Of a stretch of 37,738 nt of DNA, positions 1 through 11,513 are shown in pieces (positions within the stretch are counted from its first letter, which is position 1; every line of letters begins with the position of its first letter). Origin of the DNA: an uncultured Candidatus Saccharibacteria bacterium (GTDB taxonomy: Bacteria > Patescibacteriota > Minisyncoccia > Phycocordibacterales > UBA9973); the NCBI GenBank assembly GCA_964546355.1, contig CAZJJM010000002.1, positions 1 through 37,738 of the forward strand, given 5' to 3'. The translations under genes were made by a program, and so were the position numbers. Under the pieces are notes generated by a model. The model made no database searches. It was not told the origin of the DNA and was given only the letters and a program-made list of their open reading frames with translations.

Positions 1-249
1 TGTTGGAACTAGGATACGGGAACATAGAGGCTATATTTATATACCACCATTAAATATTTAATCTAGAGAAATTTATTCAAGTGTTAAACGTTTATGAGTT
101 TACACCTTTATCTGCTTCTCACGAAACTCTTTTATTGATTCCTGAGCTTTATCATATTCTTCCTGTGTTATTGGTCTATACACTACCCGCACTAAATTTA
201 ATAGCCGAGGATGGATCAGAGCAAAAACAACATAGCATCTACACTAAAA

Positions 250-267
250 GGTATCCGTATGGATACC
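250..267. terminator. Perfect hairpin (GGTATCC-GTAT-GGATACC) flanked by A- and T-tracts, about 20 nt 3' of the TR. It may be a bidirectional terminator or a structured TR-RNA 3' element.
   Basis: Read directly: aaaaGGTATCCgtatGGATACCttttgtttt. There are U-tracts on both strands. Confidence 0.4.
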
Positions 268-286
268 TTTTGTTTTGCGAGGAGGA

Positions 287-417
287 ACTTCGGAACGAAG
301 CCGGAGGCGGAACCATAGTGGTCATTAGTATTCGACACATCGTTCGCATTGAACTTAAGCTTGTCATCATTGAAGTTCAAGATCGGAGCCTTCGAGAACA
401 CACCATCGCCATCCGGA
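287..417 (-). repeat. DGR template repeat (TR), the adenine-bearing invariant copy
   Basis: The plus-strand T's at 290, 322, 326, 340, 343, 349, 350, 355, 356, 361, 362, 364, 371, 376, 377, 383, 391 and 392 are A's on the minus strand. These are the only positions that differ from the VR, apart from a single C/T difference at 300/803. In the VR reading frame the TR is rich in AAY codons (..ILNFNDDKLKFNANDVSNTNDHY..). Confidence 0.85.
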
Positions 418-680
418 AATCTACTTCTATCCATCTACACCACCAGAACTTGAAACGACACAGATCGCTTCTTATTCCTGTATTTTATCTGATAGCATGC
501 GAGTCGCATCTATTTTGAATAGAAGTAAGCAGTATCTCCTCACAGAGAGTGCACTCTTCCAAACCGTAGTCGGGAAAATTCTGACTCTTTTCTCACTGAA
601 GAGAAAGAGTTCGGCGACGGCTATCCTTGGACATGCCGTACACGAGCCTATACTCACATAGACTATACCAGATGTAATAT

Positions 681-716
681 AAAAAGAAAAAAGGGCTATC
701 CAGTGGATAACCCTTT
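681..716 (-). terminator. Rho-independent terminator downstream of the DGR target gene/VR
   Basis: Minus strand reads AAAGGGTTATCCACTGGATAGCCCTTTTTTCTTTTT. This is a ~10-bp stem with one mismatch followed by a T-tract, about 75 nt after the stop codon. Confidence 0.6.
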
Positions 717-787
717 GTATAAAAAAAATTCGAATGCAACGTAGTATAAAGGAAACAAAAGTTTCAATATACGAGATGCAACAATCA

Positions 788-1723
788 CTACTGCGGAACG
801 AAACCGGAGGCGGAACCATAGTGGCCATGAGTATTCGACACACCGCTCGCAACGAACCCAAGCCCGCCATCATCGAAGCCCAAGACCGGAGCCCCCGAGA
901 ACACACCATCGCCATCCGGAGCAAATTCATCACCTGCACAATCAATGTGTAATTGTTCCCACATAACAAATCTTTCAGGATGGGTTAATGCGATGCAGAT
1001 AACTGCAAGCGCACCTAATCCGTATTCGTTCGCAGTGCTGGAAATAATTTCCCTAGCACGGTTTACTGATTCACCCCGGTGTTTGAATCCCAACTGAGCG
1101 GCAATGATAATGATATCGCCTTGTTGCTGTTGCTTTACTTCGCCAAATTTTTCAATCGTGCGTGCATTACCACGAAGGTGTTTTTTGTCGATTTCACCCT
1201 TACGATAATTGGTAAAGCTACGGCTTTCATCAAGCTTAGCTAATGCAGTGTTTACTGCCTGGCAATACCGGTCAATAGGGTCTGTAACGTGAGGGAAAAG
1301 CTTTGCGGCAATTGCTTCTGTGCGTGGAATGGCAAACCATCCTTCGGCACCTTCAGGTAATTCCGGTAAGTTTTCTGCATACGCTAATGCCTGTGCTGCA
1401 TCTAAGCCCCACTGAGCAGAAACCATGGCAATCTGCATTTGGATTGTTTTTGGTCCTTTGTACTCTTTCGGGTAGGTGGAGGTTGATTCTGTTACCTGGT
1501 CGGCATATTTGTTCGGAGTGGTCATATCAAGAATGATTGCCTCTACGGCTTCCTGCACTCTTCTTTTGAATTCTCCACCCTGTTCAATAACTCCCTTTTG
1601 GACGTTATCGTTTGTCGGGTTTACTTTGCCTACTGCAGCTTTACAGGCCTCTCTGCCTAAATCAGCTACTTTGTCTTTTTGTTGGTCCGTGATCAACGTA
1701 CTTGTTTTTGCGATTGTTGTCAT
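788..1723 (-). CDS. DGR target (variable) protein, 311 aa. The N-terminal ~260 aa are unassigned. The C-terminal ~45 aa are encoded by the VR; a C-type-lectin-like fold is inferred only by analogy with other DGR targets.
   Basis: Long ORF with an ATG start and a consensus promoter upstream. The C-terminus ..PDGDGVFSGAPVLGFDDGGLGFVASGVSNTHGHYGSASGFVPQ is paralogous to the TR-encoded ..PDGDGVFSKAPILNFNDDKLKFNANDVSNTNDHYGSASGFVPK. Confidence 0.85.
   Translation of the reverse strand: MTTIAKTSTLITDQQKDKVADLGREACKAAVGKVNPTNDNVQKGVIEQGGEFKRRVQEAVEAIILDMTTPNKYADQVTESTSTYPKEYKGPKTIQMQIAMVSAQWGLDAAQALAYAENLPELPEGAEGWFAIPRTEAIAAKLFPHVTDPIDRYCQAVNTALAKLDESRSFTNYRKGEIDKKHLRGNARTIEKFGEVKQQQQGDIIIIAAQLGFKHRGESVNRAREIISSTANEYGLGALAVICIALTHPERFVMWEQLHIDCAGDEFAPDGDGVFSGAPVLGFDDGGLGFVASGVSNTHGHYGSASGFVPQ
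790..920 (-). repeat. DGR variable repeat (VR) at the 3' end of the target gene
   Basis: Ungapped match to 287..417. TR adenines are replaced by G (15 sites), C (2) and T (1). Changes hit codon positions 1-2, for example AAC->GGC, AAT->GAT, AAG->GGG, AAT->GTT, AAC->AGC and AAT->CAT. The VR ends at the TAG stop (788-790). Confidence 0.85.
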
Positions 1724-1765
1724 CGTTATTAAGTTTTAAAGAGCTAGAAAACGCTAGCTTGCGTC

Positions 1766-1787
1766 TATAAAACAACGTTGTTTTATA
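1766..1787. promoter_or_regulatory. 22-bp perfect palindrome TATAAAACAACGTTGTTTTATA over the predicted transcription start of the target gene; candidate operator
   Basis: A perfect inverted repeat, read directly, located 5-6 nt downstream of the -10 box. A second hairpin, AGCTAG-cgtttt-CTAGCT, follows in the leader (~1742-1759). Confidence 0.4.
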
Positions 1788-1792
1788 AAAAT

Positions 1793-1821
1793 ACTATATC
1801 AAAAATATATGGTTTTGTCAA
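1793..1821 (-). promoter_or_regulatory. Sigma70-type promoter of the DGR target gene
   Basis: Minus strand has TTGACA (1821..1816), a 17-nt spacer, then TATAGT (1798..1793). It lies about 70 nt upstream of the ATG at 1723. Confidence 0.55.
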
Positions 1822-1958
1822 TATAGCTATATATTCCCTATTTTAAGGGGTTTTTAGTGCTTCTTCTTCCTTTTTATCATATTGCTCTTTCTGATGTTCG
1901 TATATCACCCCCGCTAAACCGATAAGCATCACAGCACCATCAATAAGATCTTCTTCGG

Positions 1959-2072
1959 TTAGCTTATAGTTAACTCAGATGGATCCATTTGTTTTAATAC
2001 ACCATTCTGACAGAACGGACAATTATCCCCTTCTCCCTTATTGTTTCCGAATACCGTACAAGATGGACACAT
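1959..2072 (-). CDS. Possible 37-aa zinc-ribbon micro-protein (MCPSCTVFGNNKGEGDNCPFCQNGVLKQMDPSELTIS)
   Basis: ATG at 2072 is preceded by AGAAGG 9 nt upstream. There are two CxxC pairs 13 residues apart. The ORF is below the 60-aa cut-off of the ORF track and has no other support. Confidence 0.3.
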   Translation of the reverse strand: MCPSCTVFGNNKGEGDNCPFCQNGVLKQMDPSELTIS

Positions 2073-2132
2073 GGTTGTACCTTCTGGAACATATACTACA
2101 TTCTGACAACTGTGACAGATTCTTCACAAGAT

Positions 2133-2164
2133 ATAAAAACACAAAAGGAGGCTTTTGCCTCCTT
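2133..2164 (-). terminator. Rho-independent terminator after tRNA-Asp
   Basis: Minus strand reads AAGGAGGC-aaaa-GCCTCCTT followed by TTGTGTTTTT. Confidence 0.6.
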
Positions 2165-2177
2165 GAGTGTATTGATG

Positions 2178-2251
2178 CGCGATCGAGCGGACTTGAACCG
2201 CCGACCTCCCGCGTGACAGGCGGGCGCTCTAACCAGCTGAGCTACGATCGC
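2178..2251 (-). tRNA. tRNA-Asp (GTC)
   Basis: Reverse complement is GCGATCGTAGCTCAGCTGGTTAGAGCGCCCGCCTGTCACGCGGGAGGTCGGCGGTTCAAGTCCGCTCGATCGCG. It folds as a canonical 74-nt cloverleaf with anticodon loop CTGTCAC and T-loop TTCAAGT. CCA is not encoded. Confidence 0.95.
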
Positions 2252-2297
2252 AACAATATCTTTTTATCATAAAATAGGAATTACTCCTATTTTATTG

Positions 2298-2371
2298 TGC
2301 CGGTAACAAGAGTTGCACTTGTGACCTTCGCTTTATGAGTGCGATGCTCTAACTACCTGAGCTATACCGGC
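2298..2371 (-). tRNA. tRNA with CAT anticodon (elongator Met, or Ile2 if lysidinylated), with a non-canonical T-loop
   Basis: Reverse complement is GCCGGTATAGCTCAGGTAGTTAGAGCATCGCACTCATAAAGCGAAGGTCACAAGTGCAACTCTTGTTACCGGCA. The acceptor stem is 7 bp, the anticodon loop is CTCATAA, and the T-stem is ACAAG/CTTGT. The T-loop is TGCAACT, so G sits where U55 normally does. There is an A31/A39 mismatch. Confidence 0.8.
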
Positions 2372-2386
2372 AAATATACCATTTGT

Positions 2387-2414
2387 ACTATAGCATATAT
2401 ACGCATTTTCTCAA
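2387..2414 (-). promoter_or_regulatory. Putative promoter for the tRNA-Met/tRNA-Asp transcription unit
   Basis: Minus strand has TTGAGA (2414..2409), a 16-nt spacer, then TATAGT (2392..2387). It lies 15 nt upstream of the tRNA 5' end. Confidence 0.4.
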
Positions 2415-2420
2415 GAAGCA

Positions 2421-2449
2421 TTGCTCTTTATGTCAGATTGTGGTATTCT
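2421..2449 (+). promoter_or_regulatory. Putative extended -10 promoter for tRNA-fMet
   Basis: TTGCTC (2421-2426), a 17-nt spacer ending in TGG, then TATTCT (2444-2449). It lies 16 nt upstream of the tRNA 5' end. Confidence 0.4.
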
Positions 2450-2465
2450 TTTGACTGTAGATTAT

Positions 2466-2536
2466 CGCGGGATAGAGAAGAGGCATCTCGCAAGGCTCAT
2501 AACCTTGAGACGTCCGTTCGAATCGGGCTCCCGCAA
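2466..2536 (+). tRNA. Initiator tRNA-fMet (CAT)
   Basis: Sequence is CGCGGGATAGAGAAGAGGCATCTCGCAAGGCTCATAACCTTGAGACGTCCGTTCGAATCGGGCTCCCGCAA. Three features mark it as a bacterial initiator: a C1xA72 mismatch, an A11:U24 pair, and CGCGGG...CCCGCAA ends like E. coli tRNAfMet. Only two of the three usual G:C pairs occur in the anticodon stem. Confidence 0.9.
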
Positions 2537-2548
2537 CATGTATATAAA

Positions 2549-2575
2549 AATCATCCATGATACACATGGATGATT
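2549..2575. terminator. Bidirectional terminator between tRNA-fMet and the convergent membrane-protein gene
   Basis: AATCATCCATG-ataca-CATGGATGATT is an 11-bp perfect stem, flanked by AAAAA on the 5' side and TTTAT on the 3' side. Confidence 0.65.
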
Positions 2576-2582
2576 TTTATAT

Positions 2583-3179
2583 TTAGAGTACATCCAATGT
2601 TTCAAGTACTCGTTTGAAACGATCAATTGTTTGTCGAGTTTCTGCTCTGGTCAATTCATATAATGAGCCTTGGTGAGCAATATTATTGCGAACAAGGTGA
2701 GCATCCCATGCCAGTTGTTTTGCTGGGAATTGCTGTTCAGAAACATTTTTTAATCTTTCACCAAGTGTGTCACCGACAAATCCTTTTTCAGATGTTGCTT
2801 CTTCGAGCATGGCATCTGCTTCAAGGATTGCCAATCGCCATTCTGCGTCACGATCTGAATTACTATGTTCTTCGACAATAGACCAACGTCCAGTATATTT
2901 CTTAGTATCTACAGAAACTGGCGGTTGATCTGGACCAGCAAGGAGTGCTTTGCGTTTTTGTGCTTGTTCGTGATTGATTTCGTATATACGAATCAAACAA
3001 TACAAAATAACTGCAATAAAAATAACTGCGAGTAATGAAAAGAAATTTTTGAACCAAAGAAAAAAATTAGTAGCTGTTTCTCCTCCACCAAATATTGCAC
3101 GGAAAAATAACAATATCTGGTAAAAAATATAATCAAGGTTGAGATATGTTGGATCAAAAACTTCTTTGTTCATAGACAC
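2583..3179 (-). CDS. Membrane protein (2 predicted TM helices) with an all-alpha C-terminal domain carrying an Rx4H motif
   Basis: 198-aa ORF. Hydrophobic segments are YIFYQILLFFRAIF and FFSLLAVIFIAVILYCLI. The C-terminal domain contains ..AWDAHLVRNNIAHQG... I do not recognise a family. Confidence 0.7.
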   Translation of the reverse strand: MSMNKEVFDPTYLNLDYIFYQILLFFRAIFGGGETATNFFLWFKNFFSLLAVIFIAVILYCLIRIYEINHEQAQKRKALLAGPDQPPVSVDTKKYTGRWSIVEEHSNSDRDAEWRLAILEADAMLEEATSEKGFVGDTLGERLKNVSEQQFPAKQLAWDAHLVRNNIAHQGSLYELTRAETRQTIDRFKRVLETLDVL

Positions 3180-9503: not shown

Positions 9504-10139
9504 TTATTCTACGCTAATTTGACCAGTCGCCCAAATAATAATATTTTTCTGACGAGTCTCATCAGCAGATTGGATGACTATCTTTCCATCAACAATTACA
9601 CCAGTAGAAACAACAGGAAAACCTGCATATCGCATTACCGCATCAAGGTTTGGTCTCTTGAAAACTACTTCGAGTGGCTTGTCAGGACTACAGTCAACAT
9701 CACCTTGCATGAGTTTACTGTTTGCACACACTTCTTTGATATCATCAGTGCCACTAATGGTGTATTTTTCGATACACTCATCCCCTACCATAGGTGTGCC
9801 GCAAGCACGGTTTGCAGGATCAAGAGAATCCAATTGACCACTATTGTCGAGATCGGCAAAATAATAAAAAGATTGTTCATTTGGATCAACATACACACCA
9901 TACGAAGGTTTGTTCGGTAAAACAAACAAGGCGTTGTATCCACCTGACGCAGAAGTAGTCTGTGCACGTTTGATCGTAAGTGCAATATCTTGAGAAAGAT
10001 TTTGTAAAGATATGTTTGAAGAAAAATCTCGTGAGTTGAACAATACCACAGACGCAATAATGCCGAACAAGCTGATAATCACGATCAGTTCAATGAACGT
10101 CATACCTTGATTCTGTTGTGTGTACCATTTTTTCATCAT
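9504..10139 (-). CDS. Type IV minor pilin/pseudopilin (FimT/GspH-like)
   Basis: MMKKWYTQQNQG|MTFIELIVIISLFGII is a prepilin signal. The start was chosen at 10139 to avoid overlap with pilD. Confidence 0.7.
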   Translation of the reverse strand: MMKKWYTQQNQGMTFIELIVIISLFGIIASVVLFNSRDFSSNISLQNLSQDIALTIKRAQTTSASGGYNALFVLPNKPSYGVYVDPNEQSFYYFADLDNSGQLDSLDPANRACGTPMVGDECIEKYTISGTDDIKEVCANSKLMQGDVDCSPDKPLEVVFKRPNLDAVMRYAGFPVVSTGVIVDGKIVIQSADETRQKNIIIWATGQISVE

Positions 10140-11054: not shown

Positions 11055-11513
11055 CTAGTTACAAGCGTTAGCTGTGATTGCACCAGCAGCAGCACCTGCA
11101 TTTTTTGCTGATGAACCAGTTGAATCAACACACCATGAACCACCTTGAGTGAGATCAGCAGCAACAGCCCAAGCTGTTGTAGTACTAGAACAGTTAATTC
11201 CATTACTATTACGTTTTGTTAAAGATGTCGTTAATTTAACAATACCTGCGTCTGCAAAAATACTACTTGCTGTTGCACCAGTCGGTGCTGCATCTGTAGC
11301 ACAATTTGTACCAGCTGCTGTACCATAACTTCCAACTGAATCGTAAACAATCTCTGCTTGCGCACGAAGACTTGAGAGTTCACCCTTGATCGCAGCATCA
11401 GCACCTTTACCACGAGCACTGTTGAGCGATGCGAGCACAACAGATGCAAGGATTCCGATGATTGCAACAACAACCAAAAGTTCAATCAATGTAAAACCTG
11501 AATTTTTTTTCAT
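11055..11513 (-). CDS. pilA: Major type IV pilin (GspG/PilA-like)
   Basis: MKKNSG|[28 protein letters not shown] is a textbook prepilin signal. The protein is 152 aa with four Cys in the Ala/Gly/Thr-rich C-terminal half. The gene has its own promoter region and terminators on both sides. Confidence 0.85.

Follow-up and report, generated by a model that had tools for sequence, protein, structure and literature searches.

An apparently truncated Patescibacteria diversity-generating retroelement cassette that retains its repeat pair and template RNA module

Near one end of a Patescibacteria contig of 37,738 nt, all of which was analysed and is here called the window, lies what appears to be the target-proximal half of a diversity-generating retroelement (DGR) of the Patescibacteria B3 type. 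The genes for its reverse transcriptase (RT) and its Avd protein seem to have been deleted, and on balance the locus is most likely a relic that was silenced recently, with its variable repeat (VR) frozen and the RNA module of its template repeat (TR) still free of decay. Judged by gene content, it is a truncated derivative of a CPR B3 DGR rather than a complete member and would not be able to run alone. The B3 architecture of CPR DGRs has been defined as TR-(avd)-RT (Wu et al. 2018, PMC5758913), and one DGR clade, clade 2, is restricted to Patescibacteria (Roux et al. 2021, PMC8144416); the relatives of the window described below probably belong to that clade. We present evidence that the repeat pair bears the marks of mutagenic retrohoming, that a conserved RNA element upstream of TR is intact, and that a short remnant of avd survives where the deleted genes would have stood.

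Results

The template and variable repeats

The repeat pair and the gene that carries one of its copies comprise the following features.

788..1723, minus strand: target gene, encoding the variable protein of 311 aa; helices are predicted for residues 13-68, and the C-terminal domain (about 118-311) looks C-type-lectin-like in the model
790..920, minus strand: VR, the last 43 codons and stop codon of the target gene
287..417, minus strand: TR, 131 nt with 30 adenines, mostly within AAY, AAG and GAY codons
1793..1821, minus strand: target-gene promoter, TTGACA, 17-nt spacer and TATAGT with a TG upstream of the -10 (11/12 consensus positions)
690..716, minus strand: intrinsic terminator of the target gene, a 12-bp stem followed by a T-run

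A repeat search and a separate re-alignment gave the same result: TR and VR align without gaps over 131 nt each at an offset of 503, with 85.5% identity and 19 mismatches. Tabulated by TR base on the minus (coding) strand, 18 of these 19 are adenines in TR, which VR reads as G (15), C (2) or T (1), reproducing the pattern that the original prediction had described for two 131-bp repeats 503 bp apart. Changes thus affect 18 of 30 TR adenines but only 1 of the 101 other bases (Fisher p = 2.5e-13), and identity outside the adenines is 100/101. The mismatches fall at codon positions 1 (9), 2 (9) and 3 (1). The prediction had also placed the diverged copy in the last ~43 codons of the 788..1723 frame, with changes at codon positions 1-2 and no stop codon created, and this holds; its count of twelve altered residues must be raised to 13, a terminal K->Q having been missed.

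That terminal replacement arises from the mismatch at 290/793, where TR AAG corresponds to VR CAG. Nearly all of the ~30 related TR/VR pairs listed have a TR ending in CCGAAGT and a VR with CCGCAG, and this recurrence shows the 290/793 mismatch to be a fixed rather than a random difference at the repeat boundary, probably of the IMH/IMH* type. The sole non-adenine difference, which had been located in the 3'-terminal segment, is indeed there: a synonymous C->T at 300/803, inside the zone of a G/C-rich stretch (CCGCCTCCGG) near the repeat 3' end that is a candidate IMH region. The TR and VR of two related loci, L026 and L029, are mismatched at the same codon position. We considered the C->T change as a marker of decay and ruled this out, since intact relatives are mismatched at the same 3'-terminal codon position.

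An ordinary duplication, its copies diverging by chance, selection or some other strand-specific mutation, might be proposed because A->G transitions make up 15 of the 18 changes, so that G is favored more strongly than in relatives (L002, for example, has 10 G, 6 C and 3 T at changed TR adenines). Such an origin does not account for 18 of 19 differences on the adenines of one strand (p = 2.5e-13), for the placement of adenine changes at codon positions 1 and 2, for the positional homology with TR/VR pairs of ~60 RT-bearing DGRs, or for the coincidence of the protein family's variable columns with adenine-containing TR codons. The adenine bias and the homologous RT-bearing loci effectively refute a non-DGR origin, to which we assign next to no probability. 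That 287-417 and 790-920 are a true DGR TR/VR pair, and that the A-to-N pattern is a trace of mutagenic retrohoming, is strongly supported by these sequence comparisons; the DGR interpretation first offered for the pair is backed both by the adenine bias and by the same TR/VR pair, Avd and RT at the ~60 homologous Patescibacteria loci.

The target protein matches no Pfam family and no NCBIfam entry, and a profile search against PDB sequences returned no match. It belongs to a family of >1,400 proteins, almost all from Patescibacteria. AlphaFold models of the target have pLDDT values of 90 and 89; the whole fold has no significant match in the PDB. When the C-terminal domain was searched with Foldseek, nearly all of the best ~30 matches were C-type-lectin-like, 27 being C-type lectin CRDs or snaclecs, in addition to Bd2740-C and TvpA. 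The top match had E = 0.066, probability 0.90 and a target-normalised TM-score of 0.58, with no match at E < 0.001. These matches agree with one another but are weak, and the models suggest that the VR-bearing C-terminal domain probably has a C-type-lectin-like ligand-binding fold.

Homologous cassettes in other Patescibacteria

At ~60 other Patescibacteria loci, homologous targets that are 42-58% identical to that of the window carry the same TR/VR pair at the corresponding place, with an Avd gene and RT after it. The order in these relatives is target with VR, a spacer of ~314-520 nt, a TR of 123-140 nt, a hairpin, avd on the opposite strand and the RT gene; avd starts 50-70 nt past TR, and in all of the ~60 relatives RT and avd adjoin TR. 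Avd (PF22296, NF033474) and RT (PF00078) were found directly after TR at L002, at ~28 of 72 GTDB loci and at ~35 of 80 metagenome loci. One MAG, JAHFMX01, carries two complete cassettes (L024 and L031). The RT genes of relatives contain (GA)n tracts, a possible substrate for phase variation. Over the target family as a whole, complete, RT-less, decayed and absent DGRs were all encountered.

The window resembles these B3 DGRs in its homologous target, in a VR occupying the last ~43 codons, in the length of its TR and the CCGAAGT at its end, in a non-coding VR-TR spacer of similar length bearing the same promoter and structured RNA, in the hairpin after TR, and in the placement of adenines in AAY, AAG and GAY codons. 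Target, VR, spacer RNA, TR and hairpin are collinear. It differs from them in lacking the (avd)-RT module, of which nine avd codons are left, and in the location of its cassette in a small strain-specific islet by a tRNA-Asp gene.

The template RNA module

Five elements surrounding TR make up the RNA module.

662..670, minus strand: extended -10 promoter of the TR RNA (TGGTATAGT), conserved family-wide as TGnTATAnT
418..655, minus strand: structured non-coding RNA 5' of TR, with helices at 613-650, at 546-589 and at 517-525 paired with 424-435; no Rfam match
531..543, minus strand: 5' strand of a long-range helix (GUGAGGAGAUACU), which pairs with the TR 3' end and includes part of a near-invariant AUACUGC motif
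277..289, minus strand: 3' strand of the long-range helix (AGUUCCUCCUCGC), formed by the last 3 nt of TR and the next 10 nt
246..271, no strand assigned: hairpin AAAAGGTATCC-GTAT-GGATACCTTTT just past TR, conserved in position and with compensatory stem changes across the family

The structured RNA 5' of TR, ~240 nt from promoter to TR in the window, is supported by covariation, and a 12-bp helix with this RNA clamps the 3' end of TR. The window copy of the RNA preserves 43 of the 47 pairs in the consensus and 73 of the 75 conserved positions, on par with intact relatives; the long-range helix, the promoter and the target ORF are likewise intact. An Rfam search of window positions 1-2700 at E <= 1 passed only three tRNAs, with sub-threshold matches outside the TR-RNA region, and none of the curated RT-associated Rfam motifs matches the RNA upstream of TR. 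The hairpin lies between TR and the convergent avd in relatives and is therefore likely to be a bidirectional terminator.

The DGR of Bordetella phage BPP-1, which has the order mtd-VR, avd, TR, Sp, brt, offers a comparison. Both systems have repeats of similar size with adenine-specific differences, a VR at the 3' terminus of a gene whose product probably has a ligand-binding fold of the C-type-lectin-like kind, a repeat whose 3' end is rich in G/C and resembles IMH and IMH* in its non-adenine and fixed TR/VR differences, and base pairing between an RNA element and the 3' end of TR. In BPP-1, the Sp-TR pairing adjoins the Sp A56 priming site (PMC6182149). The pairing element lies 5' of TR here and 3' of it in BPP-1, avd of the relatives lies downstream and is encoded on the other strand, whereas in BPP-1 it stands between VR and TR, and the window element is cellular rather than phage-borne and has neither RT nor Avd. 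By analogy, the conserved RNA 5' of TR may do the priming and positioning job of Sp.

The missing reverse transcriptase and avd genes

Pfam annotation of the 47 ORFs of at least 120 aa on the 37.7-kb contig yielded housekeeping genes only and no RT (RVT_1). With sensitivity set to its maximum, HMMs built for the family's RT and Avd detected nothing above noise in six-frame translations of the window and of L001, a Logan contig. The only occurrences of the YxDD motif of RTs in a scan of the window were in adenylosuccinate synthetase and in an open frame of 225 aa without an RT match, and both were discarded.

L001 extends the view past the end of the window. It equals the window at 2203 of 2205 nt, across TR up to the window end, and then enters the gene for a NUDIX hydrolase, which is the next gene after TR; RT and Avd were not found in the 720 bases that it adds past the contig end. 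In syntenic relatives that are 92-95% identical in DNA, no RT was found within 10 kb past the NUDIX gene. The cassette occupies a strain-variable islet, one boundary of which is the 3' end of the tRNA-Asp gene and the other of which lies 61 nt beyond window position 1. VR is identical in the window and L001, for which membership of the two assemblies in one population may be the simple cause.

2177..2251, minus strand: tRNA-Asp, whose 3' end is one boundary of the strain-specific islet carrying the cassette
209..235, plus strand: avd 3'-end remnant (GGATGGATCAGAGCAAAAACAACATAG), nine codons GWIRAKTT*, at a distance from the hairpin typical of the family

Avd proteins of the family end in ..GRMLGGWIRSxxx*. 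The remnant contains an exact 12-mer (TCTGATCCATCC) that is unique in the window, stands in the right position and is followed by an in-frame stop codon; this scar is visible at the DNA level only and was missed by the HMMs. Nine remaining codons of avd imply that avd and RT were deleted, and their deletion would make the cassette non-autonomous.

It is improbable that the DGR is complete and its RT only seemingly missing through an assembly break 286 nt past TR, with L001 being chimeric or from another strain. The contig does end close to TR, and co-occurring strains with different islets in the sample would give a branched assembly graph (L163 derives from the sister run SRR12762291). Nevertheless, avd would be expected to start 50-70 nt after TR, and the 286 nt in the window hold the nine-codon avd tail followed by unrelated sequence; L001, moreover, matches the window through TR to its very end and continues from there. 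The working hypervariation system that was originally proposed is not supported as stated, given the absence of RT and Avd from the contig, the 720 bases beyond it and the syntenic relatives, and the avd remnant. Lack of an RT on the contig, one part of what the original prediction had named as evidence against itself, is what the 37.7-kb sequence displays.

Closer target homologues that might still show the locus as it was before the deletion were sought. The best match, from 5.8 billion proteins together with GTDB genomes and JGI metagenomes, is 58-62% identical, and the pre-deletion state was not found. The 90% cluster of the window protein comprises one sequence only, and no VR variants of it occur among 15 billion database proteins; the clusters of relatives, serving as positive control, contain many VR variants.

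Other cassettes without reverse transcriptase

Loss of RT is found elsewhere in the family. L095, L118 and L148/149 have lost RT and kept an adenine-specific TR/VR pair, with mismatches at adenines in 18/20, 21/21 and 19/22 cases, respectively; in L118 the first 12 RT codons are fused to another ORF. The independent losses in L095, L118 and L148 indicate that such deletions recur. L036 and L038 are clearly decayed, with TR/VR at 74-77% identity and most mismatches at non-adenines. Like the window, the RT-less and decayed cassettes (L095, L118, L148/149; L036, L038/L133, L018) have a deleted RT, a retained TR/VR and avd or RT fragments at the junction. L095, L118 and L148 retain a full-length avd, unlike the window, and the degraded pairs of L036 and L038 contrast with its still pristine one.

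Discussion

In intact relatives, a promoter in the VR-TR spacer would drive a structured RNA that runs into TR, and the helix between this 5' RNA and the TR 3' edge would frame the template. RT and Avd, encoded just downstream of TR, would then reverse-transcribe TR with misincorporation opposite adenines, and the resulting cDNA would take the place of VR at the target-gene end, as in the Bordetella phage DGR. At the window locus retrohoming has clearly acted, recoding 18 template adenines and changing 13 residues, before a later deletion would have taken the RT gene and all of avd except its last nine codons.

What has happened to the cassette since then is either recent silencing or service in trans by another RT. 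The single-sequence cluster of the window protein, set against the many VR variants in the clusters of its relatives, counts for a relic that would now be inactive; counting against it, no part of the cassette looks decayed. This pristine condition is equally compatible with a very recent deletion and with use of the cassette by an RT-Avd whose genes lie elsewhere in the genome.

The second of these readings, in which the TR RNA is still made and is reverse-transcribed by the RT-Avd of a second DGR in the same genome so that VR continues to diversify, is a serious contender, although we hold it to be the less probable. It is consistent with the integrity of every cis element, with TR/VR differences confined to adenines and one 3'-terminal site, and with the adenine-specific pairs kept at three independent RT-less loci (L095, L118, L148/149). 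The two complete cassettes of JAHFMX01 make a second RT per genome possible, and purified bRT-Avd works in vitro on separately supplied DGR RNA (PMC6182149). Against it, RT was not found in 38.4 kb of the strain or in 20 kb of syntenic relatives, RT and avd always adjoin TR in the ~60 relatives, and Avd is gone too, unlike in L095, L118 and L148. The 15 billion database proteins, too, held no VR variant of the window protein. Patescibacteria genomes are small, leaving limited room for a second DGR. TRs are usually directly beside the RT gene (PMC5758913).

On the favored reading, that of a recently silenced relic, the locus offers a view of a cassette shortly after RT loss, in which target, VR, TR and TR-RNA machinery are intact beside a nine-codon scar. 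For annotation, it illustrates that a perfect adenine-mismatch pattern does not prove a working DGR. Because surveys for DGRs take the reverse transcriptase as their entry point, cassettes lacking it go unseen. The analysis also yielded, as a by-product, a conserved RNA of this DGR clade, located 5' of TR and supported by covariation, that clamps the 3' end of TR and has no Rfam match.

The locus is also a test case, within the turnover of Patescibacteria DGRs, for the possible use of TR RNAs in trans. We advance only tentatively, and think rather unlikely, the broader idea that RT-less TR-VR cassettes are functional 'satellite' modules, each with its own promoter, scaffold RNA and TR, served by the RT-Avd of another DGR. 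Its signature would be the near-purely adenine-specific TR/VR differences seen in four independent RT-less cassettes (the window, L095, L118 and L148/149). If true, one enzyme pair would diversify several unlinked targets, each from a private template.

Adenine-specific divergence of a repeat pair

A repeat search of the first 6 kb of the window returned a single strong direct repeat, pairing positions 287-417 with 790-920 over 131 nt at 85% identity and a spacing of 503. Re-alignment on the minus strand yielded 19 mismatches, 18 of which fall at an A of the 287-417 copy, replaced in the 790-920 copy by G (15), C (2) or T (1); the lone exception is a C->T change at 300/803. The original prediction had described the two copies as the template repeat (TR) and variable repeat (VR) of a diversity-generating retroelement (DGR), matched without gaps and differing almost only at TR adenines, and that description was correct: tabulated by TR base, 18 of 30 adenines are altered versus 1 of the 101 remaining bases (Fisher p = 2.5e-13). 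VR, the diverged copy, makes up the last 43 codons of ORF 788..1723, where the mismatches occupy codon positions 1 (9), 2 (9) and 3 (1, synonymous) and create no stop codon in the VR reading frame. Thirteen residues are altered, one more than first counted (K->G, I->V, N->G, N->D, D->G, K->G, K->G, N->V, N->S, D->G, N->H, D->G and K->Q). Nearly all of the roughly 30 related TR/VR pairs listed have a fixed 3' boundary, with CCGAAGT in TR and CCGCAG in VR. The repeat pair of the window is real and DGR-derived.

A truncated member of a common DGR cassette

The comparison drew on GTDB species genomes (72 loci) and metagenomes (80 loci), each locus being scanned for adenine-biased repeats, reverse transcriptase (RT) and accessory variability determinant (Avd). 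About 60 loci of the target family share one common cassette, in this order:

Target gene with VR
Non-coding spacer, mostly 314-520 nt
TR, 123-140 nt
Hairpin
avd gene, opposite strand (PF22296; NF033474, E = 2e-22)
RT gene (PF00078)

This is the 'B3, TR-(avd)-RT' architecture of Wu et al., who report it for 90% of CPR DGRs (PMC5758913). In a placement made without an RT tree, the cassette probably corresponds to DGR clade 2 of Roux et al. (PMC8144416), a clade restricted to Patescibacteria. RT and avd always adjoin TR in these cassettes, avd starting 50-70 nt past TR; roughly half of the target-family loci have no TR or RT inside 10 kb. Beyond its TR the window contains:

246-271: post-TR sequence and hairpin, as in relatives
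209-235, plus strand: avd 3' remnant GGATGGATCAGAGCAAAAACAACATAG, reading GWIRAKTT and a stop codon

The remnant fits the conserved Avd tail (GRMLGGWIRSxxx and stop), and its stop codon lies at the family-typical distance from the hairpin. The 12-mer TCTGATCCATCC has one copy in the window, exactly at this remnant, and similarity stops altogether upstream of the nine remnant codons. Avd and RT HMMs, built from 27 and 17 family sequences, found nothing in six-frame translations of the window, and Pfam identified neither a reverse transcriptase nor Avd among window ORFs of at least 120 aa. A near-identical Logan contig, L001 (SRR12762287), encodes an identical target, shares 2203 of 2205 positions with the window and reaches 720 nt past window position 1. 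In that extension a terminator precedes a gene for a NUDIX hydrolase; there is no RT. The window cassette thus belongs, in truncated form, to a well-catalogued DGR type of Patescibacteria, and its one unusual point is the RT-less state. The hypervariation system originally proposed survives as a DGR-derived pair and not as a complete system, RT being absent and avd reduced to nine codons. The only differences from L001 (GG versus TT at window 47-48) are less than 50 nt from the end of the contig and probably arose there as an artefact of assembly.

In related DGRs outside the window, the RT ORF can contain a (GA)n tract (n = 4-23, reading RERERE) a few to ~20 codons upstream of a conserved GIPIGNLTSQLFAN motif (L028, L033, L034, L046, L048, L049, L050, L059, L060, L063, L075, L089, L107, L111 and L150). 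The frames on either side of the tract differ in 14 of these 15 loci, by +1 in 7 and +2 in 7, and only L046 (n = 8) is in frame. The tracts occur in a subclade of relatives; the subclade nearest the window has none. This arrangement resembles ON/OFF phase variation of the DGR RT by strand slippage, mostly OFF in assemblies, and such frame-breaking tracts may merit separate follow-up.

The target protein and its variable C-terminal domain

The 311-aa target has no match in Pfam, NCBIfam or PDB sequences. Its more than 1,400 homologues, each of ~300 aa and annotated as Paceibacteria, Parcubacteria or Patescibacteria, are at nearest 58% identical over the full length. Family alignments are well conserved save for certain columns among the final ~45 residues (FSxAPxFxFxxGxVxFxAxxVSxAxxxYGS), and these variable columns coincide exactly with the window TR codons that contain adenine. 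AlphaFold models built with 117 family sequences were confident (pLDDT 90 for the full-length protein, 89 for residues 118-311); they predict a helical N-terminal region of ~70 residues and place VR at the last three strands of the C-terminal domain. A Foldseek search of the PDB with the whole model gave nothing significant. When the C-terminal domain was the query, almost every one of the ~30 best matches had a C-type-lectin-like fold: 27 C-type lectin CRDs or snaclecs, Bdellovibrio Bd2740-C and the DGR target TvpA. These matches, the best at E = 0.066, probability 0.90 and a target-normalised TM-score of 0.58, are suggestive only. As modelled, the domain may be a diverged version of the C-type-lectin-like binding modules found in other DGR targets, and VR would set its ligand specificity.

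A conserved RNA module flanks TR

The VR-TR spacer is non-coding yet conserved across 50 loci. The predicted RNA module of the window comprises:

670-662, minus strand: extended -10 promoter, TGnTATAnT
418-670 including the promoter, minus strand: structured RNA 5' of TR, ~240 nt from promoter to TR
531-543, minus strand: 5' strand of a long-range 12-bp helix, near-invariant GAGGAGAUACU motif (the covarying helix clamps the TR 3' end to the near-invariant AUACUGC)
277-289, minus strand: 3' strand of this helix, last 3 nt of TR and next 10 nt

RNAalifold predicted 47 pairs in the spacer RNA, with compensatory changes in 42. The window retains 43 of the 47 pairs (family mean 44.4) and 73 of 75 highly conserved positions (family mean 70.5); judged by sequence, its TR RNA module is intact. 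In an anchored alignment of 36 distinct sequences, the long-range helix has a standard pair in 86% of cells, versus 39-55% when the partner columns are slid, and both-sided changes in 9 of 12 pairs. Its covariation score is 0.35 versus 0.17 for shuffled alignments, and 0 of 500 shuffles reached the observed value. TR/VR homology stops precisely at the start of this helix. An Rfam search of the TR-RNA region gave no family matches.

The cassette occupies a strain-variable islet

The window spans the entire 37,738-nt contig. Its ORFs of at least 120 aa with Pfam matches are ordinary cellular genes (GatC, GatA, NAD-dependent DNA ligase, a type IV pilus operon, RNase J, adenylosuccinate synthetase and a P-type ATPase), and three tRNA genes lie at 2177-2537. 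Contigs L161 and L163-L165, 92-95% identical to the window in DNA, are collinear with it up to the tRNA-Asp 3' end (2176/2177), and collinearity resumes at the NUDIX gene, 61 nt past the start of the window. Between these points unrelated cargo replaces the target-VR-TR cassette, either 204-aa and 104-aa ORFs or phosphoribosyltransferase, methyltransferase and dCMP deaminase genes:

L161, 8653-9936
L163, 56-2433
L164, 69-831
L165, 56-1339

The window cassette therefore occupies a strain-variable islet, ~2.2 kb long, beside a tRNA gene, and the contig probably ends here because co-occurring strains carry different islets. In these four contigs the 10 kb past NUDIX contain neither RT nor Avd, and no integrase or flanking repeat was identified at the islet.

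Within the islet, between tRNA-Asp and the target promoter, a small minus-strand ORF (about 1959-2072; MCPSCTVFGNNKGEGDNCPFCQNGVLKQMDPSELTIS and stop) has two CxxC pairs and is therefore zinc-ribbon-like. In L006, at a locus with synteny to the window (pilus operon, ligA and target, in that order), a 40-nt direct repeat, 92.5% identical, surrounds a DGR-less target homologue (9870-9909 / 11103-11142); L007 and L008 also have it.

Silencing or service in trans

On balance, the window cassette is somewhat more likely than not to be a recently silenced relic. RT and avd, always next to TR in the relatives, are lost, and both the window and L001 carry the same VR. Moreover, the 90% cluster of the window protein is a single sequence, whereas the relatives' clusters comprise numerous variants, distinguished chiefly by VR (22-36 variable columns among the last 45 residues versus 20-42 in the other ~260). 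The cassette is nevertheless free of decay, unlike L036 and L038, which retain only an avd fragment and whose TR/VR identity is down to 74-77% with mostly non-adenine mismatches. Its sole non-adenine mismatch, at 300/803, falls in the 3'-terminal zone, a stretch in which intact relatives differ as well. RT-less, adenine-pristine cassettes have also recurred independently:

L095, 11370-12600: full avd, then EF-Tu; adenine-specific TR/VR pair
L118, 2416-3477: full avd; adenine-specific TR/VR pair
L148 (L148/149), 1664-3164: full avd; adenine-specific TR/VR pair

These features, which speak against a relic, leave service of the window cassette in trans as a real if lesser possibility. In L118, the first 12 RT codons (MKIYKNLFNAII) come next after avd and are joined in frame to an unrelated ORF, marking a deletion junction. 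RT or avd fragments also lie beside target homologues with a degraded TR or none at all (L018 9552-9728, L038/L133 11371-11670, L036 1885-1953), representing more advanced DGR decay within the target family.

In the Bordetella phage, Sp lies 3' of TR and folds back onto the TR 3' end beside the priming nucleotide Sp A56 (PMC6182149), whereas the TR-pairing RNA of the window's family lies 5' of TR. By analogy, this 5' RNA may be the functional counterpart of the phage Sp priming element on the other side of TR, and the conserved TR-flanking RNA may merit separate follow-up.
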